DNA from: Armatimonadota bacterium
GTDB lineage: Bacteria; Sysuimicrobiota; Sysuimicrobiia; Sysuimicrobiales; Humicultoraceae
Assembly: GCA_052386995.1 (NCBI GenBank)
Contig: JBQTJP010000035.1
Coordinates: forward strand, 1-27,137
Length of the DNA: 27,137 bases
Direction of reading: 5' to 3'
Positions 1 through 26,832 of the stretch are shown here, one piece after another. The first letter of the stretch is position 1. The number at the start of each line of letters is the position of its first letter. Under the pieces are notes generated by a model. It did no database searches. It saw only the letters and a program-made list of their open reading frames with translations, and was not told the DNA's origin. The position numbers and the translations under genes are program-made.

Positions 1-567
1 GACGCGCATCCCCATGGCCCGGCTGATCCGCGCGACCTGGCGACCGATCGTGCCCAGGCCGATGAGGCCAACCGTCGCCCCGCGGACGTCCCGGCCGCAG
101 TACCGCTCCCACCGGCGCGCCGTCTGACCGCTCACCATGCGGAAGCCGTCCTTCGCGAACCAGAGAATCGCCATCACGACGAAGTCGGCGAGCGGCTTCG
201 CGTGGATGCCCCTGGCGGTCGTGAACGTAATTGGAGTGTGGATCAGGCCGGTGCGAAGGACAAACTGCCCAATGCCGGTGCTGGTGCCCTGGATCCATCG
301 CGCGTTGGGGACAAGATCCTTGAGCGTCTCGACGTTTGTGTGGTCAAAGTCGAACAGCACCTCGGCGTCGGCGAGATAGCGTCGCCATTGCCGCTCTTCC
401 TCAGGGGTTCGCTGCAGCGGATGACCGACGTGATCGCAGAGATATCGCGGGCGAGGGAGCAGCGCCGGCTCGTAGATGACACGGACGCCGCCAACTCGGC
501 GGATCTGCTCGACGTATTCAGGCTCCAAGAATGAGGCAATGAGCACCACGCGCCCGGGATCATCCAC
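1..567 (-). CDS. D-isomer-specific 2-hydroxyacid dehydrogenase, NAD(P)-binding (5' part; runs off the window)
   Basis: Not in the ORF track. Manual translation from GTG at 567 (GAGGG upstream): MDDPGRVVLIASFLEPEY...WIQGTSTGIG...FTTARGIHAKPLADFVVMAILWFAK...WERYCGRDVRGATVGLIGLGTIGRQVARISRAMGMRV, with the GxGxxG Rossmann motif in typical family context. Confidence 0.88.
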   Translation of the reverse strand, partial: MDDPGRVVLIASFLEPEYVEQIRRVGGVRVIYEPALLPRPRYLCDHVGHPLQRTPEEERQWRRYLADAEVLFDFDHTNVETLKDLVPNARWIQGTSTGIGQFVLRTGLIHTPITFTTARGIHAKPLADFVVMAILWFAKDGFRMVSGQTARRWERYCGRDVRGATVGLIGLGTIGRQVARISRAMGMRV

Positions 568-16070: not shown

Positions 16071-17090
16071 CTATGAGCGCCTGCGCGGAGGTGGCGTCGA
16101 CAGAATGTACACCCTCACCGGCCGGCGGCCAAATTTGTACGCTTCCCGAACGGTATCGTAGCAGAGATCGATCCGGTGTCCCTTGATCGCGCCGCCGGTG
16201 TCCCCGGCGATCGCCCGCCCGTAGCCTTCGACGAACACCACCGATCGCAGCGGAATGACCTTCGGGTCGACGGCGACGACACCGTAGCGCGCTTTGAGCC
16301 CGATCGCGGTGATGTCGTTCACGCCTTCGCCATGCCACGGTGCGTACGCCGTGGCCTCCATCTGCACGACTTCTTTGCCGGCGAACTCCCCGCGGTCCGC
16401 GAACATCCGGCGCGTACCGACCTGAACGACATGATCCTGCGGCGGCGCGGTGATGACCGGCGCAAGTTCCCGGCGATCGACGACTTCGCCGTCGGCGGTC
16501 GTCACCGACGTGGCGTAGGTTCGGACACCCAGGCGGCCGCGCTGGACGACGCGGGGCACACCGCTCGGCAACGTCACCGTCGGCTGGATGATGCGCGCGA
16601 ACGGTACGGGCTCGGTCTTCTCGATGATGCGCGTCTCGATGCGGACGATTCGCACAATGTCCCCAGACACGAGCGGCGTTGCCGCCGAAGGATAGACGCG
16701 GTCACGCGGCCGGACCGCGAGCCCATGTGCCGCATCGCCGATGAGCTCGTCGACGGTCGCGGCCGCCGTCATCACCACGCGCCTGCTCCCATCCACCATG
16801 ACGAGCACGGGAAACGCACGACGTATCTCGATGATCGTGCGAGGCGCCAGGCGCACGCCTGCCGCCGGAATCAGACGATCGTGGGGACCCACGGTGATTG
16901 CGGCTTCTCTAAGAACGTCACGTACGGTCGCGCCATAGGTCAAGCGGCGCTGCTTGACGACGCGGTGAGATTCGTCCTCGATGCGGAATATGACAGCGTT
17001 GGGGAGATGCGCGAGGACGGCGGGGCTGATGGCCGAGATCAGGGCTCCAAGCACGTACACACCCAGCCACCTTCGCATGGGAAAGGGCAT
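16071..17090 (-). CDS. YabE/RpfB-like cell wall protein (DUF348 repeats, G5, 3D domain)
   Basis: N-terminal signal/TM, two ubiquitin-like DUF348 repeats, G5, 3D domain (MEATAY, VAVDPKVIPL, AGDTGGAIKGHRIDL). AGGAGGTGA SD before ATG 17090. Confidence 0.9.
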   Translation of the reverse strand: MPFPMRRWLGVYVLGALISAISPAVLAHLPNAVIFRIEDESHRVVKQRRLTYGATVRDVLREAAITVGPHDRLIPAAGVRLAPRTIIEIRRAFPVLVMVDGSRRVVMTAAATVDELIGDAAHGLAVRPRDRVYPSAATPLVSGDIVRIVRIETRIIEKTEPVPFARIIQPTVTLPSGVPRVVQRGRLGVRTYATSVTTADGEVVDRRELAPVITAPPQDHVVQVGTRRMFADRGEFAGKEVVQMEATAYAPWHGEGVNDITAIGLKARYGVVAVDPKVIPLRSVVFVEGYGRAIAGDTGGAIKGHRIDLCYDTVREAYKFGRRPVRVYILSTPPPRRRS

Positions 17091-17248
17091 CCCGTCACCT
17101 CCTGTCCGTCGGAAGATCACGGCCGTGCGAACACGCCGGGCGTCATGGCGAGGAAACGGTGAGCGGGAAGGGCGACCCTCCGGCGCAGAGCCGGCCCTTT
17201 GAGCACTTTGGGGGCGGAACCGTTCTACGTCCTAATGGAAACATACCC

Positions 17249-17331: not shown

Positions 17332-17751
17332 CTACGGCGTCGTGGTCTGGACCAGCTCGATGAGCATGCCGTGCGTGTCTTTGGGATGCAAAAAGATGAT
17401 GCGGCTGTTGTGCGCGCCCGCGCGGGGCACCTCACTGATGGGAGTGAAGCCGGAGCGGCGCGCGTGCGCCAGAGCCTCGGCGATGTCCTCGACGGCAAAC
17501 GCGATGTGGTGGATGGCTTCACCGCGGCGCGCGAGGTGGCGTGCGATCGGGCCCTGCGATCCCAGCGGCTCGAGAAGCTCAATCCGCACGCCGCCCAGCG
17601 TGACAAACGCCACGGTCACGCCCTCACTCGGCAGCGCCTCCGGCGCACCGACACTCAGGCCCAGGTTCTCGTAGAGCCGGCTCGCCTCGGCGATACTCCG
17701 CACCGCCACGCCGATATGATCGATTCGGGTCGGACGCCAGCGCGAGGCCAT
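17332..17751 (-). CDS. mce: Methylmalonyl-CoA epimerase
   Basis: IDHIGVAV, IELLEP, IHHIAFAV, FLHPKDTHGMLIELVQ, plus gene context. Confidence 0.93.
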   Translation of the reverse strand: MASRWRPTRIDHIGVAVRSIAEASRLYENLGLSVGAPEALPSEGVTVAFVTLGGVRIELLEPLGSQGPIARHLARRGEAIHHIAFAVEDIAEALAHARRSGFTPISEVPRAGAHNSRIIFLHPKDTHGMLIELVQTTTP

Positions 17752-18696
17752 TCACATGTGAGCGAGCAGCCGGTCGGCGGCGGTATGCGGGTCGAGGTCA
17801 CCGGCCGCCACGCGCTCGACGAGCGCATCGAGTGAGGCTGCGTGGGCCCCGGCCAACACCCGCGCGCGCAGCCGCTCCTCGGCGATGCGGATGATCTCGC
17901 GCCGCCACCGCGAACGCCGCCGTGCGTCGTGGCCCCCGGTCGTTTCTTGGTGGCGCCGGTGGGCGTCGATGGCCGCCATCATCTCCACCACTCCCTGCCC
18001 GGATGTCGCCACCGTGGTGAGCACGGGCGGGTGCCACGCGCCGGCGGGGAGCGCGGCCAGCGTCATCTTCACATCCGTGACCGTCCGATCGACCTCGGGA
18101 CGGTCGGCCTTGTTGACGACGAACACATCGGCGATCTCCATCACGCCGGCCTTGAGCGTCTGGATGCCATCCCCCATGCCCGGCATGGTGACGACCACGA
18201 CCGTGTCGGACGCAGTGATCACATCGACTTCGGCCTGACCCGTGCCCACCGTCTCGATGAGGATGGTCGTGGCTCCCCAGGCGTCAAGCACTGCGCTGGC
18301 GTCCGCGGTCGCCGGCGCAAGGCCGCCGAGACTGCCGCGCGTGGCCATCGAGCGCACGAACACCTCTGGATCGGTGCTGTGATCCTGCATCCGGATGCGA
18401 TCGCCGAGCAGGGCGCCCCCGGTGAATGGGCTCGTGGGATCGACCGCGATCACGCCGACGCGGGCCCCGCGTTCTCGCAGCAGCCGGATCGCCGCATTGA
18501 CCAACGTGCTCTTCCCCGAGCCCGGCGGTCCGGTGATCCCAACGATGTGCGCGCGGCCGGTGTGGCGAAAGAGGGCGCGCAGGGCACCCGACGCCGCCGC
18601 GCTGTCATTCTCGGCGAGAGAGATCAGGCGCGCCGCGGCCTGCGGCGTGCCGGCGACAACGGCGGAGACGAGTTGCTCGACGAGGTCTGACAGCAT
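17752..18696 (-). CDS. meaB: Methylmalonyl-CoA mutase-associated GTPase
   Basis: GITGPPGSGKST, AVDPTSPFTGGALLGDRIRM, ETVGTGQ, NKAD. Confidence 0.95.
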   Translation of the reverse strand: MLSDLVEQLVSAVVAGTPQAAARLISLAENDSAAASGALRALFRHTGRAHIVGITGPPGSGKSTLVNAAIRLLRERGARVGVIAVDPTSPFTGGALLGDRIRMQDHSTDPEVFVRSMATRGSLGGLAPATADASAVLDAWGATTILIETVGTGQAEVDVITASDTVVVVTMPGMGDGIQTLKAGVMEIADVFVVNKADRPEVDRTVTDVKMTLAALPAGAWHPPVLTTVATSGQGVVEMMAAIDAHRRHQETTGGHDARRRSRWRREIIRIAEERLRARVLAGAHAASLDALVERVAAGDLDPHTAADRLLAHM

Positions 18697-18704
18697 CCAA
18701 CGAG

Positions 18705-19148
18705 CTACCGAAAGTACTCCAGCCTATCGATCGTCTTCACCATGACCGGGCCGTCCGTCAGCGCATCGGTGACGCGTAGGAGCGCGCCGTTGGTCATCGG
18801 CCTGGGGAGCGCATCCGGAGGAAAGTACCGCGCCTCCAGGATCTCTTTCCCGTCGGGCGCGAGCGCTCCGCCGACTACCCGGCAGCGAAATGCAAAGACG
18901 ATCTGCTCATTGTCGCGGCGCCAGTACACGCCGTACAGTGCTTCGATCTCGACGTCGAGCCCGGTCTCTTCGCGCGCTTCGCGTACGGCGGCCTCCGCGG
19001 GTGACTCGCCAGGATCGATACCGCCGCCCGGCGTCGTCCACTGGCGCTGATCATACGACAGGCGCACGAGCAGCACGTCACCGACCTCGTTGAAGATCGC
19101 CGCGCTCGCCGCGAGCGGCCGGGGAAGCTGCGCATTGGAAACGGCCAT
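18705..19148 (-). CDS. NUDIX hydrolase
   Basis: Nudix box PGGGIDPGESPAEAAVREAREETG. ATG 19148 overlaps the mutase stop (TGATG). Confidence 0.9.
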   Translation of the reverse strand: MAVSNAQLPRPLAASAAIFNEVGDVLLVRLSYDQRQWTTPGGGIDPGESPAEAAVREAREETGLDVEIEALYGVYWRRDNEQIVFAFRCRVVGGALAPDGKEILEARYFPPDALPRPMTNGALLRVTDALTDGPVMVKTIDRLEYFR

Positions 19149-20743
19149 CACACCACGACCGGTGGGCGGTAGGTCGAGAAGACTCCGCGGAGGACGTCGC
19201 AAATCTCGCCGACCGTCGCGTACGCACGCACGGCGTCGAGGATCGGGAGCAGCAGGTTGTCGGTCCCTCGCGCGGCATCGCTCAGGTGCGCGAGGGCACG
19301 CGTGACCTGGGCCCCATCGCGTTCGGCCCGTACCCGAGCCAGTCGCGCCTGTTGCCGGGCCACCGTCTGGGAGTCGATGCGCAGCGTCTCCGCCCGGACG
19401 CCGCTGTCGCTGTGGAACCGGTTGACGCCGACCACGACCATGTCGCCGCGTTCGATCGCCTGCGCTTCTCGGAACGCGCTCTCTGCGATCTCGCGCTGGA
19501 TCAGTCCGGTCTCGATCGCGCGCAGCTGACCGCCGGCGGCTTCGATCTGCTCGACCTTTTCCCGCGCCCGCCGCTCGATCTCGTCGGTCAGGTGCTCGAT
19601 CATGTAGGCGCCCGCGAGTGGATCGGCCGTCGAGGCCACGCCGCTCTCGTGGGCGATGATCTGCTGGGTGCGCAGTGCGAGCAGCGCCGACCCTTCGGTC
19701 GGGAGCGCAAGAGCCTCATCGCGGGCGTTCGTATGGAGAGATTGCGTGCCACCCAGAATCGCCGCCAGCGCCTGGATCGCCACACGCACCGCGTTGTTGT
19801 CGGGTTGCTGCGCGGTCAGCGCCGCACCGGCGGTCTGCGTGTGGAACCGCAGCATCATCGATCTGGGATCCTGCGGCCGGAAGCGCTCGGTCACCAGGCG
19901 CGCCCACAGGCGCCGCGCCGCGCGAAACTTGGCCACCTCTTCGAGCAGCCGCATCTGCGCGGCAAAGAAGAACGAGAGCGACGGTGCCACCCGATCAACC
20001 GGGAGGCCCGTCTCAACCGCGGCCCGGAGATAGGTCAGGCCGTTGCCGAGGGTAAACGCGACCTCCTGCACGGCGGTCGCACCCGCCTCCCGGATGTGGT
20101 ATCCGCTGACGCTGATGGGGTTCCACCGAGGCAGGCGCTCCGCGCAGAAGGCAAAGGTGTCCGTGACGAGCCGCAGCGATGGTCTGGGGGGGTAAATGTA
20201 TGTCCCCCGGGCGATGTACTCTTTGAGGATATCGTTTTGCGTCGTGCCGTCGATGCGGTCGAGGGGCACGCCCTGACGCTCGGCCACAGCGATGTACATG
20301 GCGAGCAGGATGGCCGCGGTGGCATTGATTGTCATCGAGGTCGAGACGCGATCGAGGGGGATGCCATCGAACAAGACTTCCATATCTGCAAGGGAGTCTA
20401 TGGCCACGCCGACCTTGCCGACCTCGGGCTCGGCGAGCGGATGGTCGGAGTCGTAACCCATCTGCGTGGGGAGATCAAAGGCGATCGATAGTCCGGTCTG
20501 CCCGCGGTCGAGCAGATAGCGGTAGCGACGGTTCGACTCTTCCGCGGTCCCGTAGCCGGCGTACTGCCGCATCGTCCACAGACGGCCGCGGTACATCGTC
20601 GGATGAATGCCGCGCGTGTAGGGAAACACGCCGGGCGCGTGGAGATTACCGTCGTCGGTGGTGTCGACGGCCTCCGGGCCGTATACCGCATCCAGCGGGA
20701 TGCCGTCGGTCGTGGCGAAGGTCTTGGGCCGCTCGTCGGTCAT
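19148..20743 (-). CDS. mcmA: Methylmalonyl-CoA mutase, large substrate-binding subunit (no B12-binding domain)
   Basis: [54 protein letters not shown]. Ends after TVGEI, with no DxHxxG. ATG 20743 overlaps the upstream stop. Confidence 0.93.
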
Positions 20744-21300
20744 CCGTCGGACCCTTCCACGTCGACCGGGGCAGAGACCTGGACGATGACCAGCACCTGG
20801 CCGCCGGCAACTTCCTGACCGGGCCGCACCCGGACGTCCTCGATCGTACCCGATGAGGGCGCCCGGACCTCCATGTGCATCTTCATGGCCTCGACGATCA
20901 CGACGGCGCTCCCGGCCGTCACGCTCTCGCCGGGAGCCAGTGGCGTGGCGGTCACAAGTCCCGGCATCGGCGCGCGTATTTCTATTCGATGCTCGACGCC
21001 GGCGGCCGCAGACCGCTTCGATTGCACGGGGAGCCAGCGCCGTACCTCGAGCGGCACGCGCGTTGCGCCGACGGTCGCAAGGAGCGCCACGTCGCGGCCG
21101 TGCTCGCCCTCCGCGCGCAGCCGTACGGGTACGCCGAGACCATCGATCTGAAGACGCCACCACTCCGAGCCGGCCAGGGGATGAAGCCGAACCGCGGCGG
21201 CCGACCCATCGAGCGTGATGCGGAGCGCGTCGCCTGCCGGCTGAACAGCGGAGACTTCCACCCGCCGTCGGTTCCCGCGCGTCCCGATCTCTAGAATCAT
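20740..21300 (-). CDS. Biotin carboxyl carrier protein with N-terminal BT-like region
   Basis: IRAPMPG, biotinylation motif EAMKM, VRAPSSG. ATG 21300 overlaps the biotin carboxylase stop (ATGA). Confidence 0.9.
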
Positions 21301-22790
21301 CGCAGGCCTTCTTCGCGGGCGACCGCGATCCATCGAGGCGAGGTCCCGTCGGTGGGGAACGAGGGCGACTGAGCCCTTCGATACGCCCACGCCGCGGCGG
21401 CGAGCATTGCGATGCGATCGGCGTCCGGCGACGCAGGGCCGTGCCCCCATCCGTCCGCAAACCGCACATCGTAGTGGCCGCGCACGAACTCGGGTTGCTC
21501 TAGCGCCCAGCGATAAAACGGGATCGTCGTGTGCACACCCGAGATCAGGTACTCGGCCAGCGCCCGGCGCATGCGGGCAATCGCGACCTCGCGCGTCGGG
21601 CCACCGGCGATGACTTTTGCCAGCAGGGGATCGAAATGGCGGGAAACGGTTTGCCCAACCCAGGCGCCGCTCTCGATCCTGATGCCGGGGCCGGCCGGCT
21701 CAACAATGCCGTCGATGGCGCCCAGTGACGGCAGAAACCCGCCGTGGGGATCTTCGGCGCTGATCCGGCACTCGATCGCACAGCCGCTCCAGCGGATGTC
21801 ATCCTGGCGGACCGCCAGCGAATCGCCGCCGGCGATAGTCAGCTGCGCGACCACCAGGTCGAGGCCCGTCACCACCTCGGTCACGGGATGCTCCACCTGA
21901 ATCCGTGCGTTGACTTCAAGAAAGTAAAACCCGCTGTCGTCAACGAGGAACTCGACGGTCCCGGCGTTTCGGTAGCCGATCGCCCTGGCGACGGCGAGCG
22001 CCGCGCGTCCCAGCGCATGCCGGACCTCGGGATCCAGACCCGGGGCCGGGGCTTCCTCAATCAACTTCTGATGACGCCGCTGCACCGAGCATCCACGCTC
22101 GCCGAGGTGGACGACCTCGCCGGCGGCGTCCGCGAGAATCTGCACCTCGACGTGCTGCGAGCGCTCGACCCATCGCTCGAGGTACACGCGTGGGTCGCCA
22201 AACGCGGCCTGCGCCTCGCCTCGGGCCAGACGCAGCGCGGCCGGGAGCTCGTCGGCAGCGCGCACCAGATGAATCCCTTTGCCGCCGCCTCCGCCTACGG
22301 CCTTGATGAGCACCGGGAATCCGATACTGCGCGCGCCGCAGATCGCGCCCTCGTCGTCGACAGGGCCAACTCCCTGCAGCACCGGCACGCCCGCGGCCTC
22401 GGCGGCCGCACGGGCGGCTGCCTTGTCGCCGCAATACCGCAACGCGGGCGCCGGAGGACCGACGAAGATCACGCCCGCCGCGTCACAGTCGGCGGCGAAC
22501 GCCGGATTCTCGGCGAGGAAGCCGTACCCGGGGTGGATCGCGTCGGCGCCCATCCGGCGCGCCAGATCGATGAGCAGGGGACCGTTCAGGTAGCCCTCGG
22601 ACGGCGCGTCACCGGGAAGGGGATGAGCCGAGTCCGCGAGCCGAACATGCGGCGCGCCGGCGTCGATCGGCGAGAACACGGCCAGCGGTGTGATGCCCAG
22701 ATCGCGGCAGGCGCGGATGATGCGCACGGCGATCTCACCGCGGTTGGCGATGAGGAGGCGGCGGATGGGCGAGGCCGAGACCCTACTCGT
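21297..22790 (-). CDS. accC: Acetyl/propionyl-CoA carboxylase, biotin carboxylase subunit
   Basis: [56 protein letters not shown]. No canonical start near the N-terminus; ACG 22790 is proposed. Confidence 0.9.
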
Positions 22791-23256
22791 CCTCGTCTTC
22801 CTCCCGCGGACGGTCAGGCCGGTAGACGAGAGAGTACCGCGCGATCTGAAACCCCACGGATTCGTAGAAGCGCAGGCCGCGGAGATTGCCTGCCACGACC
22901 CCGGACTGAATCTCATCCGCGCCGTTCGCTTTGATCCAATCGATGAGCGCCTGCGCAAACCGCCGGCCCACACCCTCTCGACGGTACTCCGGATAGATGA
23001 AGAACTCACCGATCTGAGCCTGGGTGCGGGCCTGATCAGCCCAGTGCTTGAGCAGCACCACGACGCCAAATCCAACCCGGCGTCCGCTATCGATGGCCCA
23101 CCAGATGTACCGGCGCTTGCCCTGATCGGCGAACAGCGCGTCGAGATAGTGATCGAGCGCGCTCTCGGAAGGGGGTTCGCCGGCAGTCTCCTCGCGGTAC
23201 CGCCGCATCCAGTCCCGGAAACGGGAGTCGCCTGCGCTGACGAGCTCAAGCTTCAT
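22783..23256 (-). CDS. GNAT family N-acetyltransferase
   Basis: FFIYPEYRREGVG acetyl-CoA motif, NLRGLRFYESVGF. ATG 23256 with AGGGA upstream. Confidence 0.9.
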   Translation of the reverse strand: MKLELVSAGDSRFRDWMRRYREETAGEPPSESALDHYLDALFADQGKRRYIWWAIDSGRRVGFGVVVLLKHWADQARTQAQIGEFFIYPEYRREGVGRRFAQALIDWIKANGADEIQSGVVAGNLRGLRFYESVGFQIARYSLVYRPDRPREEDEDE

Positions 23257-23355
23257 TGCGTGTCCCTGTCGATCGACGGCTCTATGTCGGGAATTCAACC
23301 TCATGATAGGCGAACCGTATGAAAATCGCCAGCGGCGAGGCTCATTGCGCCGCCG

Positions 23356-23868
23356 TCACCGCCGCCCCTCTTTCACCGCCTCGGCGGTCAGCAGCAGAAA
23401 GTCCACGGTCTCGATCGGGGCGCCCAACTGTCGGAGCATGGCCATGACCTGCGCGCGATGGTGGATCTCATGGTAGCAGAACTGCGTGAAGACCTTGATG
23501 GCCGTCGTCTTCACCGCGAACGTCTGCCGCGACGGGATGATCACCGTGATCTCGACGGGGCGGGACCAGTCCGGCTCGCCTTCAATGATCTCGACGGTCC
23601 GGGGTTCGAACTGCCGCCACGCGCCTTCCAGGCTCGAGGCATCAGGGTGGCGCGCATAGGAGAACGGGTTGTCGGTGCCAGGGCTCCCACGGAGTTGTCC
23701 GAGCACGAACCATTCTGCTCCGGCCATGTGATGCACGGTGCGGCGCACCGACTTCAGCCCAAATGGGAACTCCTGCTGGTACTGCTCGGCAGACAGGCTT
23801 CGGACCCGTTCCATCCACCGGCGCCGCGCATCGGTCAGGTACTGATAGTGATCCAGCGGGCTCAGCAT
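23356..23868 (-). CDS. DinB family protein
   Basis: SVRRTVHHMAGAE and HEIHHRAQVMAMLRQLG His-triad motifs. GGAGG 8 nt before ATG 23868. Confidence 0.88.
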   Translation of the reverse strand: MLSPLDHYQYLTDARRRWMERVRSLSAEQYQQEFPFGLKSVRRTVHHMAGAEWFVLGQLRGSPGTDNPFSYARHPDASSLEGAWRQFEPRTVEIIEGEPDWSRPVEITVIIPSRQTFAVKTTAIKVFTQFCYHEIHHRAQVMAMLRQLGAPIETVDFLLLTAEAVKEGRR

Positions 23869-23899
23869 CGCGTTGGCCTCCACCGAGGGACGTGTGTCG

Positions 23900-25447
23900 C
23901 TAGAGCGGAATATTGCCGTGCTTGCGCCGAGGGTTCGCGGCGCGCTTGCGGTGCAGGACCTCGAGCGCCGCGATCAGCCGGCGGCGTGTCTCCCGCGGGG
24001 CGATGACATCGTCCACGTAGCCCCGGGCCGCGGCGACGTAGGGATTTGCAAACTGCCCGCGGTAGTCGGCGACCAGCTCGCGGCGGCGCGCGTCGGGGTT
24101 GGGAGCATCGGCCAGCTCCTTGCGGAAGATGATGTCGATGGCGCCTTCCGGGCCCATCACCGCGATCTCGGCCGTCGGCCAGGCCAGGTTGAGGTCGCCG
24201 CGGATGTGCTTGCTCGCCATCACGTCGTATGCGCCGCCGTAGGCCTTTCGGGTGATCACCGTCAGCTTCGGCACGGTCGCCTCACAGTACGCATACAGCA
24301 ACTTCGCGCCGTGCCGGATGATCCCGCCGTGCTCCTGCGCCACGCCGGGGAGAAACCCCGGCACGTCCACGAACGTTAGCAGCGGGATGTTGAACGCGTC
24401 GCAGAATCGGACGAACCGCGCGCCCTTCACCGAGGCATCGATGTCGAGCACGCCGGCGAGGACGGCGGGTTGCTGCGCGAGCACCCCGACCGGTCGGCCG
24501 TGGAGCCGCGCGAACCCGACGATCAGGTTGCGGGCGAACGCCGCGTGGACCTCGAGGAACTCCGCGTCGTCAACCACGCGCGAGATGATCTCGTGCATGT
24601 CGTACGGCTTCGCAGGATCCTCCGGCACCAGCGCATCGAGGGCGGGGTCGGCGCGCGAGGGCTCATCGGCCGGCGTTCGACGGGGTGGATCTTCGAGGTT
24701 GTTTGACGGAAGAAACCCGATCAGCCGGCGAATGAGGGCCAGGCAGCCCTCGTCGTCGTCGACGACGAAGTGGGCGATGCCGCTGCGGCCGGCATGAACG
24801 TCGGCACCTCCAAGATCCTCGAACGATACCTCCTCACGCGTCACCGCCTTGACGACTTGGGGGCCGGTGACGAACATGTACGCGGTGCCCCGCACCATGA
24901 TCGTGAAATCGGTGATCGCCGGCGAGTACACGGCGCCCCCGGCGCACGGGCCCATGATCGCGGAGATCTGCGGCACGACGCCGCTGGCCAGCGTGTTGCG
25001 CAGAAAGATGTCGGCGTAGCCGCCCAGGCTGACGACGCCTTCCTGAATGCGCGCGCCGCCGGAGTCGTTGAGGCCGATGACCGGCGTCCCCGTGCGCATC
25101 GCGAGGTCTTGGATTTTACAGATCTTCTCGGCATGTCCTTCGCCGAGCGATCCCCCGAGGACCGTAAAGTCCTGTGAGAACACGTGCACCGGCCGGCCGT
25201 CGATCGTGCCGTGACCGGTCACGACGCCGTCGGCGGGCGCCTCCGCCCGGTCCATGCCGAAATCGCGGCTGCGCGGTATGACAAACGGATCGAGCTCTAC
25301 GAACGATCCCGGATCGAGGAGGATGTCGAGCCGTTCGCGCGCCGTCAGCTTGCCCGCCTGGTGCTGACGGTCGATGCGCTCCTCGCCGCCCATCGCCAAC
25401 AGCCGCTCGCGGCGGCGGCGCAGGTCGTCCAGGCGATCGGGCGGCAC
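23900..25447 (-). CDS. pccB: Acyl-CoA (propionyl-CoA) carboxylase, carboxyltransferase subunit
   Basis: [54 protein letters not shown]-terminus, plus context. Confidence 0.93.
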
Positions 25448-25452
25448 GAGCT

Positions 25453-25731
25453 CTAGGACGGCGCCCCGGACTCCGGCGGCAGTGGGCCGTACGGACGGAT
25501 GGCGATGATCCCGTGTTTGAAGAGAAGTTCCTGCGTTCCGTTGTTTTCGATCAGGAGGCTGTAGGTGCCGAAATCCTTGACGATCGCCGACGGGATCTCG
25601 TACCCATCGCGGCAGCGGATGTACACGGGCGTGGCAGCGCCGACGAGTCTGCGGTAGAAGGCATCTTCGAGCGACGGCCGCGGCGGGGCCTTCGTCCCTG
25701 TCGGCCCGTCCGTTCGGATCTCTTCGCGCAT
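25453..25731 (-). CDS. Possible in-frame internal product: stand-alone 92-aa Hfq-like protein
   Basis: Internal GGAGGTG (25746-25740) lies 5 nt before GTG 25734 and 8 nt before ATG 25731, just ahead of the Hfq domain. Confidence 0.55.
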
Positions 25732-26676
25732 CACGGTTGCACCTCCCTGACGCTCCGGTCGAATCTCACTCATGTCGTGAATGACGTCCTCAGCGGCCGC
25801 GCCCACCGCATGGGCTTGCCAGGACTCGCCCCGCAGTGGCTCGTGCCCGGGACTTCTTGACGGTTCTTCCGTCGCCGGAGGCTCGTCCTGCGCGGCACCC
25901 GTGGGCGGAGCTTCCTCCGGGCTCGCCGGGGACCCAGCGCCCGCCTCGGCGCGGATGAGCCGCTCATAGTGCGCGCGCAAACCTTCAAACTGCTGGCGGC
26001 GATCCAACCGCACCTTGCCTGCACCTTCAATCCGGCGCGGCGGCTTTTGCGCGGCATCCATGACCGCGCCGACGACCGCTTCGGCCTCACTGGACGTCAC
26101 CGCCTCCGCACCCACGTGCAGCAGGCTCGTCCGTTCCGAAGTCAGGGTGAGGGCGGCCAGCGCCACGGCAGCGCCGGCGAATTGCATCACCGACAGGGCC
26201 TCCAGCGACGGCCGGTAGCCGCTCCGTTCGATGAGCGGACGCAGCGCCTCGACGGCCGCCAGGGCCACGGTGCGCAGGCGTTGCGACTGTCCGGGCGGCG
26301 CCTGCGCCGTCCCGGTCAAGGTCTTCTGGGCGCCTTCGCGCTCATACCGCAGCTCGACGATGACGTTGGTCATCGTCTCCGTCATCGTTTCTTCGAGCCG
26401 GACGAGCTGAGAGGCCGGGATGCGCTCGGTGTCGGGCGTAGGCTGCAGGTGGGCGATCTGAACGCGCCAGCCATCAACGGGCAGGTTGAACTGACTCATC
26501 AGCGCGGACGTAATGGCACGCCTGATCCCGCCGTCATCGCGCGCCGACTCGGTCGTGACATAGATGCGCTCGATGTCGCCGGCCTCATTCGCCACGACGC
26601 GCACCGCCGCGACGGCATCGAGCCGTTCGAGGAAGGCTTCGATCTCTTCTGCGAAAACTTCCCGGGGCACCGGCAT
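25453..26676 (-). CDS. Hypothetical protein with a C-terminal Hfq (Sm-like) domain
   Basis: C-terminal [61 protein letters not shown] aligns by eye with the Hfq helix-Sm1-Sm2 ([YF]KH) core. GGAG before ATG 26676. Confidence 0.8.
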
Positions 26677-26832
26677 TGCTCCGAGTGGGATGATTGAATG
26701 AGCCCCTCTTCTGCGGCCCGCGGAAGGTCTCCTTCCCTTACACATGACTGGTGACGCGATTCATTCAGCACGCTAATCTACTTGTGATGCGCGGGACCAC
26801 GCGCAGGTTCGGCTCCCGAAAGGAGACGGCCA

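Follow-up and report, generated by a model that had tools for sequence, protein, structure and literature searches.

In many bacteria the central RNA matchmaker is Hfq, known, as far as we are aware, as a small protein that has its activity adjusted by nothing but its own tail and the competition between RNAs. In the Escherichia coli protein Q8 belongs to the proximal face, Y25 to the distal face, and R16, R17 and R19 to the rim, and long C-terminal tails of Hfq are found in Acinetobacter and Moraxella. The regulatory domain of LeuA and of the citramalate synthase CimA is located at the C-terminal end of the synthase and binds leucine or isoleucine at its dimer interface, while ClpB, IF2 and CheA are each made in two protein sizes by means of an in-frame internal start. 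The gene described here, which we compare with these systems, is located in a stretch of 27,137 nucleotides (nt) from an Armatimonadota bacterium (contig JBQTJP010000035.1 of the assembly GCA_052386995.1). This whole stretch is referred to as the window and its positions are used throughout, and residues are counted in amino acids (aa) along the 407-aa frame of the gene. The encoded protein consists of four parts, viz. an alpha-beta-beta-alpha-beta domain, a LeuA-type domain, a disordered acidic proline-rich linker and an Hfq (Sm) core, and both this domain make-up and the homology of each part are established by the results below. To explain them we favour, at chances that we place slightly above even, a reading in which the sole Hfq of this bacterium is a multidomain fusion to a sensor-type module, which would be translated from two starts, would assemble into shared rings and would be coupled to a small molecule.

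In an AlphaFold2 model built with 36 relatives (mean predicted local distance difference test score (pLDDT) 77.6, with 206 residues at 90 or above), the core consists of a helix at residues 336-347 followed by strands at 350-395, all with a pLDDT of 92-95. In Foldseek searches with the model, Hfq chains rank first, with template modelling (TM) scores of 0.86-0.91 by target and root mean square deviations (rmsd) of 1.0-1.2 Å over 66 columns. Examples of these matches are Hfq from Caulobacter (6gwk; E 3e-5, TM 0.86 by target, rmsd 1.1 Å over 66 columns) and from E. coli (4jli; TM 0.91, rmsd 1.0). Hfq structures are likewise recovered at Z 11-12 by VIA-align, which was run against 48,161 representative chains, and the closest sequence match in the PDB is Hfq from Bacillus subtilis (3ahu, E 4e-4). 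The Sm fold is accordingly present at the C-terminus, where the original prediction, made from the sequence alone, had placed an Hfq core.

The N-terminal part of the model shows the order helix-strand-strand-helix-strand at residues 9-76, and then three strands and a helix, twice, at residues 89-210. The second of these regions (strands 89-126 and helix 130-151, then strands 155-192 and helix 197-210) resembles LeuA. Against the PDB, Foldseek matches it with LeuA from Mycobacterium tuberculosis (3hps, 1sr9 and 3fig) at E-values of 6.6e-5 to 1.6e-4, and VIA-align superposes residues 85-213 of the model on the leucine-bound LeuA regulatory domain 3fig with Z 9.4 (109 residues, rmsd 2.6) and gives Z 8.6 for the isoleucine-bound citramalate synthase regulatory domain 3f6g. 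Ahead of helix 1 of this domain there is a G-x-[AG]-x-[AG]-P loop, the place at which feedback-resistant mutations of LeuA are clustered. The Pfam scan of the fusion protein detected no synthase domain and no match to PF08502 (LeuA_dimer) at E <= 1. For domain 1 (residues 3-79), the VIA-align matches are middling (Z 7.4-9.1) and they include C-terminal domains of cation-diffusion facilitators as well as C-terminal subdomains of adenylate-forming enzymes. We regard these matches as unspecific and take this domain, as modelled, to be a ferredoxin-like unit of a generic kind, with no family assignment. Beyond domain 2 the model contains a lone helix (residues 225-246), after which about 85 residues have a pLDDT below 50, among them 248-299 and 309-329. 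An N-terminal alpha/beta region, a second region with two strand-helix repeats reminiscent of the LeuA allosteric domain, and an acidic proline-rich disordered linker had all been proposed for this protein, and each of them is borne out by the model, the second also by Foldseek and VIA-align.

The residues of the core were compared with those of E. coli Hfq (annotated K-12 record) by aligning the latter with the profile of the family, which hhalign supports at 93.9% probability (E 1.6e-7, 74 columns). Because in this alignment Q8, Y25, D40 and Y55-K56-H57 pair with E337, R354, G370 and F386-K387-H388, the original assignment, viz. that the FKH motif is kept while Q8, Y25 and D40 are replaced by E, R and G, holds in full. 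Further, D9 corresponds to D338, F42 to Y372, I30 to Y359 and K31 to E360. The rim arginines R16, R17 and R19 correspond to V345, G346 and A348, and N13/A14 to R342/R343, so that an Arg-Arg pair is found one turn earlier than the rim arginines of E. coli. In an alignment of 36 sequences, E337, D338, G370, Y372, F386, K387, H388 and I390 are invariant and position 389 is either G or A (G389 in the window). From the retention of Y372, K387 and H388, the uridine pocket of the proximal face looks largely kept, while the changes at Q8, Y25, I30, K31 and the rim arginines make the specificity of the distal face and the rim look remodelled.

The joining of these parts in one protein is kept across a phylum. 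In a large protein database 190 proteins are found at E <= 1e-3, and among the best 120 of these 190 matches, 116 cover at least 96% of the query; their lengths are 355-473 aa, and the names given to them, where there are any, are hypothetical, 'RNA chaperone Hfq' and 'sRNA-binding regulator protein Hfq'. When each species was represented by one genome, a scan provided 51 related loci with 36-83% identity, the source metagenome-assembled genomes (MAGs) of which are labelled as Armatimonadota/CSP1-3, Candidatus Fervidifonticultor, Geohabitans, Calidihabitans, Thermofontivivens, ANGP1 and, in one case, 'Bacillota'. The phylum of these loci, CSP1-3, is named Sysuimicrobiota in passages of PMC11604079. 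When the loci were scored with local hidden Markov models (HMMs) of the N-terminal module and of the Hfq core, and those cut by contig ends were set apart, the two parts were present in one stop-free frame in 44 of 44 uncut loci, all from this phylum. Seven further loci are cut by contig ends (four with only the N-terminal part, running off the right end, two with only Hfq, running off the left end, and one with the tail of the N-terminal part and Hfq), and one locus was too short to score. The length of the linker is highly variable among the relatives, yet it is always in frame, and hence selection keeps both parts joined. The original prediction had asked whether the fusion recurs or whether relatives encode two separate genes, and it is the former that is seen. 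If the fusion were an artefact, caused by the loss of a stop codon, by an assembly error or by the reading of two neighbouring genes as one, its occurrence in a draft genome of 326 contigs could be thought to favour this, but no evidence supporting it was found. The same frame occurs in many independent assemblies and habitats, and the linker varies while the frame is unbroken. Based on the conserved frame in the uncut loci and the coverage in the database, we consider this explanation refuted and its probability to be practically nil.

In the genome of the window (3.47 Mb, 93% complete), a six-frame search with PF17209 recovers the fusion locus and, besides it, only a match of 13.1 bits on the contig C107. 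The latter lies in a 401-aa ORF (open reading frame) that on visual inspection looks like a protease of the trypsin type with a PDZ tail, and it was rejected as an Hfq. A separate hfq gene, for which the original prediction had proposed a check, is therefore not found, and by this search of a 93%-complete genome the fusion is the sole Hfq of this bacterium. A sample of 81 genomes of the phylum, which includes the genome of the window and one flagged as unpublished (G072, on which no result depends), has PF17209 matches at E <= 0.01 in 60 and over the cut-off in 39. Of these 39 matches over the cut-off, 37 are in frames of 367-908 aa, and the two exceptions are a canonical-looking frame of 81 aa in the genome G050 and a 106-aa frame near a contig start. 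The 81-aa frame (G050:C156:1965-2150, minus strand) scores 103.9 bits, as a canonical Hfq does, and the same genome carries the fusion on its contig C133; this short Hfq may be due to contamination (stated as 3%) or it may be a true second hfq.

A feature of this gene which the original prediction missed is a conserved putative internal ribosome-binding site together with a start codon, both located between the linker and the core. In the window the codons of this part read ATT CGA CCG GAG CGT CAG GGA GGT GCA ACC GTG ATG CGC, in which a Shine-Dalgarno-like sequence formed by the codons of Gly311, Gly312 and Ala313 is followed, in the frame of the gene, by a GTG and an ATG. The peptide encoded here is conserved: the 36-sequence alignment shows no variation at I305, R306, P307, E308 and G311, and at least 90% of its sequences keep G312 and A313. 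A codon alignment of 37 full-length relatives has 66 conserved codon columns with free third positions, and the conserved four-fold sites elsewhere are mostly G or C. However, at Gly311 the codon ends in A in 25 of 36 sequences (in T in 1), and at Gly312 it ends in T in 30 of 37 (in A in 1), while the six other columns of conserved glycine have no more than 10 of the 37 sequences ending in A and no more than 5 ending in T. The sole column that comes near this bias is Arg306, which has T in 18/37 (CGT being used unusually often). As a result GGAGG is spelled in 25 of the 34 sequences that bear the motif, and in all 25 an in-frame ATG, GTG or TTG follows 4-13 nt later, against a background of 6.9% of codons that are in-frame start codons in these genes. 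The start codon varies by clade, being GTG at +7 or +10, ATG at +7, +10 or +13, and TTG at +10 where Val is replaced by Leu, and the predicted short product is of 91-96 aa in 22 of the 25 sequences, 81 aa in two and 107 aa in one. That such sequences are used by this bacterium is indicated by counts over the genome: the frame-opening start of a long ORF with high G+C at third codon positions (GC3) follows GGAGG in 4.7% of cases and the controls GGTGG, GGCGG and CCTCC in 1.0-1.3%, and GGAGGTG precedes a frame-opening start in 8.5% against 1.2% for GGCGGTG. A set of 21 non-redundant sequences (GGA in 21/21, GGT in 20/21) was discarded as evidence, as it had been chosen by the motif and the argument would be circular. 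Database proteins of 91-93 aa begin exactly at MREE..., but they are weak support, since they are on short contigs and show only that gene callers accept this start. On balance, judged from these sequence comparisons, much of the family, inclusive of the protein in this window, probably makes both a long and a short Hfq.

The fusion could work in the following manner. From one messenger RNA, the upstream GTG with its weak GGAG would provide the 405-aa fusion, and the strong internal GGAGGTG with GTG or ATG would provide a 92-93-aa Hfq alone. The Hfq cores would assemble six to a ring, as is usual, and long and short chains may be mixed within it, in which case a ring would carry from none to six N-terminal modules. 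The LeuA-type domain may bind a small molecule or pair with a second copy, as in LeuA, which we infer from its fold, and the module or the acidic linker could alter the access of RNA to the ring and so couple RNA control to a metabolic signal. For such gating of the ring the analogue that we have in mind is the tail of E. coli Hfq, which is acidic. The original suggestion of a ligand-sensing or scaffolded RNA chaperone with altered RNA-binding faces is a reasonable hypothesis. A more specific form of the proposal would be a metabolite-gated RNA chaperone, encoded by one frame, in which the short Hfq and the sensor-bearing long Hfq form mixed rings, and where the ligand is a branched-chain amino acid, a 2-oxo acid or a compound related to acyl-CoA. 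RNA control would then be tied to the propionyl-CoA carboxylase/methylmalonyl-CoA mutase operon, which this gene heads in most of the phylum, with the acidic linker and the IRPE..GGA motif acting as a movable plug of the ring. In this specific form we consider the proposal unlikely.

Several observations weigh against the reading that we favour. The match of the fusion protein to PF17209 (residues 338-396), one of the two families against which the original prediction had wished it searched, is of 23.7 bits and thus below the cut-off of 27, even if the same locus reaches 27.7 bits in the six-frame search; the other family was PF08502, for which, as noted, no match was obtained. The score of the NCBIfam equivalog TIGR02383 (22.5 bits) is far below its cut-off of 61.7. 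In the model the module and the Hfq core are not placed against each other with any confidence (predicted TM score, pTM, 0.42). RNA chaperone activity is not assured, because Q8, Y25 and the rim arginines are replaced. In one family of the phylum (f2, inclusive of G001, G002, G004, G008 and G009), PF17209 is matched in 0 of 12 genomes, and the profile of the whole fusion in 0 of its five best genomes, which are 96-100% complete; this family has apparently lost its only Hfq cleanly. A search for RNA runs that contain this sequence listed none, and one run of unstated type contained 0.39 of the sampled words as contigs. Turning to the internal start, GGAGGTG occurs six times in the window where 4.23 are expected, and 24 of 100 shuffled sequences reach six. 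It also occurs 703 times in the genome, mostly not at gene starts, so that its presence alone means nothing and the argument rests on its conservation. This conservation is in part at the level of the protein: the IRPE..GGA motif is kept even in clades which lack the internal ribosome-binding site, due to which it must have a role as a peptide. GGAGG is missing in nine of the 34 motif-bearing relatives, all from distant clades, of which only three keep a start (ATG), and hence the second product is not universal in the family. Lastly, due to the shared ancestry of the relatives, the 25 starts in 25 sequences are not independent events.

Based on the observations concerning the internal start, one could propose that only the full-length fusion is made, that GGAGGT is kept as a translational pause which lets the N-terminal module fold ahead of the appearance of the Hfq core, as an RNA element or through a local choice of codons, and that the Val and Met which follow are ordinary residues in a conserved peptide. 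The persistence of the peptide motif where GGAGG is missing and the frequent occurrence of GGAGGTG inside the genes of this genome are in accord with this explanation, and the stretch past the internal start is conserved as well (REE in many relatives), so that a constraint at the protein level is certain. However, adjacent glycine codons ending in A and T, as seen at 311 and 312, are unique among the 66 conserved columns. Further, conservation of residues does not predict that a start is kept in 25 of 25 sequences while its type and place shift among GTG, ATG and TTG and from +4 to +13, and both the spacing and the size of the product fit a normal Hfq. We therefore regard the production of the full-length protein alone as a fairly unlikely alternative to the two-start fusion.

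The N-terminal module also exists on its own. A phmmer search with residues 1-230 against 1.84 billion representatives yields 284 proteins at E <= 1e-3, and beyond the fused forms nearly all of them are of 206-265 aa and cover residues 3-211, with 24-32% identity to that part and E-values down to 1e-15. A profile of 40 of these stand-alone relatives aligns with the fused family at an hhalign probability of 99.9% (E 1.2e-36, 205 columns). The stand-alone proteins, of about 215 aa, thus consist over their full length of both domains in the same order, and they are without the linker and without Hfq; the lone helix is absent from them as well. None of 14 scanned members reaches a Pfam cut-off, weak matches to LeuA_dimer are seen in three of the 14 (the best with 21.4 bits against 24.9), and in NCBIfam nothing near a cut-off was obtained for the module or for nine stand-alone relatives. 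The profile also matches the C-terminal domain of this genome's own LeuA (hhalign 88%, E 3e-6, 114 columns), and the two have a nearly identical ..LDAVNR.L end; the ..LDAVNRRL end of the stand-alone relatives has diverged in the fused family. Since the cut-off of PF08502 is not reached and the profile match is of this order, the relation of the module to LeuA is a distant one. A sequence search of the PDB with the profile gave nothing significant, the top match being a tautomerase at E 0.32. In the ESM Atlas the family is listed as 'hypothetical protein' in Gemmatimonadota, Bacillota and Eiseniibacteriota, and by structure it is linked to a Sysuimicrobiota cluster in which 19% of the members have Hfq.

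The genes next to the stand-alone proteins were determined in metagenomes, where 588 loci with a relative were reduced to 80 (L054-L133), of which 37 had usable flanks and 21 were tested with Pfam. In 16 of these 21 loci an HD_5 (HD-GYP type) gene is directly downstream; in nine of the 16 this gene also carries MASE9, and in six DUF5317 comes next. Upstream of the stand-alone gene a hibernation factor is found in three loci and PheT in three. The resulting string, i.e. the gene for the 215-aa protein, MASE9-HD-GYP and DUF5317, often has a hibernation factor or PheT on one side and SecA on the other. The 215-aa protein, which is widespread and unannotated, may belong to cyclic-dinucleotide signalling. 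MASE9-HD-GYP is defined on the Thermotoga maritima protein TM1467 in 10.1101/2021.11.05.467447, and the MASE9 passages of that work contain no reference to DUF5317 or to a 215-aa neighbour. For the genome studied here a link of the fusion with HD-GYP was considered and rejected, as its 10 HD_5 matches over the cut-off are all outside the window and DUF5317 was not found in the genome, in which MASE9 was not searched.

The company that the stand-alone module keeps bears on another possible interpretation, viz. that the Sm domain serves mainly as a ring-forming handle for oligomerisation, while the N-terminal module, which in other phyla would act together with MASE9-HD-GYP signalling enzymes, does the real work and RNA chaperoning is reduced or lost. 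In favour of it are the replacement of Q8, Y25, D40 and the rim arginines, the low sequence scores to Hfq models, the position of the stand-alone module directly upstream of an HD_5 gene in 16/21 loci and the 10 HD_5 matches of this genome. However, the FKH pore motif and Y372, at the position of F42, are invariant, and no other Hfq was found in the genome. Moreover, no HD-GYP gene adjoins the fusion in the window, nor is one seen at a distance of up to 2.6 kb in the 32 loci examined (by ORF sizes and some Pfam checks), and if the Sm domain were no more than a handle, there would be little reason to translate an Hfq-only form separately. This interpretation is therefore, in our view, quite unlikely.

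The positions of the features described above and of the genes next to the fusion are given in Table 1. In regard to the start of the long form, relatives have MPREVF as their N-terminus and the database copy of the fusion protein (P0002) is of 405 aa, because of which the extent originally predicted for this gene, 25453..26676, is correct to within two codons. An ATG further upstream, at 26745, would give 430 aa. Relatives of the close clade open their full-length frame with a GTG or TTG that is 6-7 bases past a GGAG only, and the GTG at 26670 is, by this comparison, probably the conserved true start.

Table 1. Positions in the window of the parts of the Hfq fusion gene, its starts and the genes that follow it
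Feature	Position	Residues (aa)	Strand	Description
Hfq fusion ORF	25453..26676	1-407	-	Single open frame, 407 aa from ATG at 26676; stop TAG 25455-25453
Upstream start candidate GTG	26670-26668		-	405 aa, MPREVF...; 8 bases after GGAG at 26682-26679
Domain 1	26440..26664	5-79	-	Helix-strand-strand-helix-strand, ferredoxin-like; pLDDT ~80-93
Domain 2	26035..26424	85-214	-	(Strand-strand-strand-helix)x2, LeuA/citramalate synthase regulatory fold; pLDDT 87-97
Conserved lone helix	25939..26004	225-246	-	In fused family; absent from stand-alone relatives
Linker	25765..25938	247-304	-	Variable, disordered, acidic, Pro/Ala-rich; pLDDT <50
Peptide motif I-R-P-E-x-x-G-G-A	25738..25764	305-313	-	Conserved in 36-sequence alignment
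Shine-Dalgarno-like GGAGGTG	25740..25746	311-313	-	Codons Gly311-Gly312-Ala313, GGA GGT G
In-frame start GTG	25734-25732	315	-	7 nt past GGAGG
In-frame start ATG	25731-25729	316	-	10 nt past GGAGG
Predicted nested Hfq-only ORF	25453..25734		-	93 aa from GTG, 92 aa from ATG
Hfq (Sm) core	25486..25680	333-397	-	N-terminal helix and five strands; RCRDGYEIP
Carboxyltransferase (beta) subunit, propionyl-/acyl-CoA carboxylase (pccB)	23900..25447		-	Starts 5 nt past fusion stop
Same-strand cluster	17332-25447		-	Carboxyltransferase, DinB, GNAT, biotin carboxylase, methylmalonyl-CoA mutase, NUDIX, MeaB, glyoxalase-fold (epimerase-like)

The spacing of 5 nt between the fusion gene and pccB suggests that the two are on one transcript. 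Directly downstream of the fusion, 23 of 32 related loci have an ORF of 513-520 aa, which in the locus L007 was confirmed by Pfam to encode the carboxyltransferase. Upstream, an NAD-dependent DNA ligase followed by a protein with a GerMN ('Germane') domain (166-188 aa) is present in all seven loci tested for both (L007, L012, L017, L024, L025, L047 and L051), and an eighth locus that was checked for GerMN alone was positive. The gene order ligA, gerMN, hfq fusion and pccB is kept across the phylum, and this synteny may be due to simple inheritance. In the window itself, which ends 460 nt upstream of the fusion, only a SnoaL-like ORF on the opposite strand is seen in that part. Within the cluster downstream, the ORFs of the mutase (773 aa) and of the biotin carboxylase (650 aa), as called from ATG starts, run into each other and are both probably too long, the mutase being of 535-576 aa in the three relatives checked. 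A second GGAGGTG is located inside the carboxyltransferase gene (24805-24811, minus strand). Past the cluster, an ORF at 16071-17120 on the minus strand encodes DUF348, G5 and 3D domains, an architecture of RpfB-like resuscitation-promoting or cell-wall factors, and a GGAGGTG at 17102-17096 suggests that its start is downstream of the first GTG.

In the titles and abstract openings of the literature searched, we found no description of an Hfq with a folded N-terminal sensor module or with an internal start. The main text of PMC11604079, which concerns Sysuimicrobiota, makes no mention of Hfq, 'RNA chaperone' or small RNA (sRNA). If a folded allosteric-type module and a plain Hfq made from the same frame both hold, they would provide a direct route from metabolism to post-transcriptional control across the phylum, and if the metabolite-gated form of the proposal were true, this would be the first Hfq under the direct control of a small molecule via a sensor fused to it, and also the first to have two isoforms. 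The fusion is also a first functional hint for the widespread unannotated 215-aa family beside the HD-GYP enzymes. According to PMC11604079, pure cultures of CSP1-3 members have yet to be obtained, and for this reason it matters that the proposal is testable with recombinant protein.

In comparison with canonical Hfq (viz. those from E. coli, B. subtilis (YmaH), Caulobacter (6gwk), Aquifex (5szd) and Thermotoga (4y91)), the fusion has in common the Sm fold, the [YF]KH[AG]I pore motif, the aromatic residue at position 42 and D9. However, it differs from all of these by about 330 additional N-terminal residues, and its gene, instead of being beside miaA or hflX, is located between the gene for a GerMN-domain protein and pccB. 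With the regulatory domain of LeuA and CimA (PF08502; 3fig, 1sr9, 3f6g), the (strand-strand-strand-helix)x2 fold is shared by domain 2, but in the fusion this domain is not joined to a TIM-barrel synthase and is preceded by an extra alpha-beta-beta-alpha-beta domain. The stand-alone 215-aa family differs from the fusion in its neighbours, as the latter adjoins carboxylase genes and not MASE9-HD-GYP. The likeness to ClpB, IF2 and CheA is in the arrangement of the frame, which also holds an in-frame Shine-Dalgarno sequence and start that would give a short form without the N-terminal domain, and the short and the long Hfq could be built into the same ring; however, in contrast to these proteins, the two sizes of the fusion are proposed from comparative evidence only. 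Finally, the tailed Hfq proteins and tandem Hfq (NF010691) are likewise made up of a core and extra sequence that may tune the binding of RNA, and the acidic disordered segment of the fusion could play the part which in E. coli Hfq falls to the acidic tip of its C-terminus. However, in tailed and tandem Hfq the additions are C-terminal and are either disordered or a second Sm domain, whereas the fusion described here carries its additional part at the N-terminus, and this part includes two folded, sensor-type domains.

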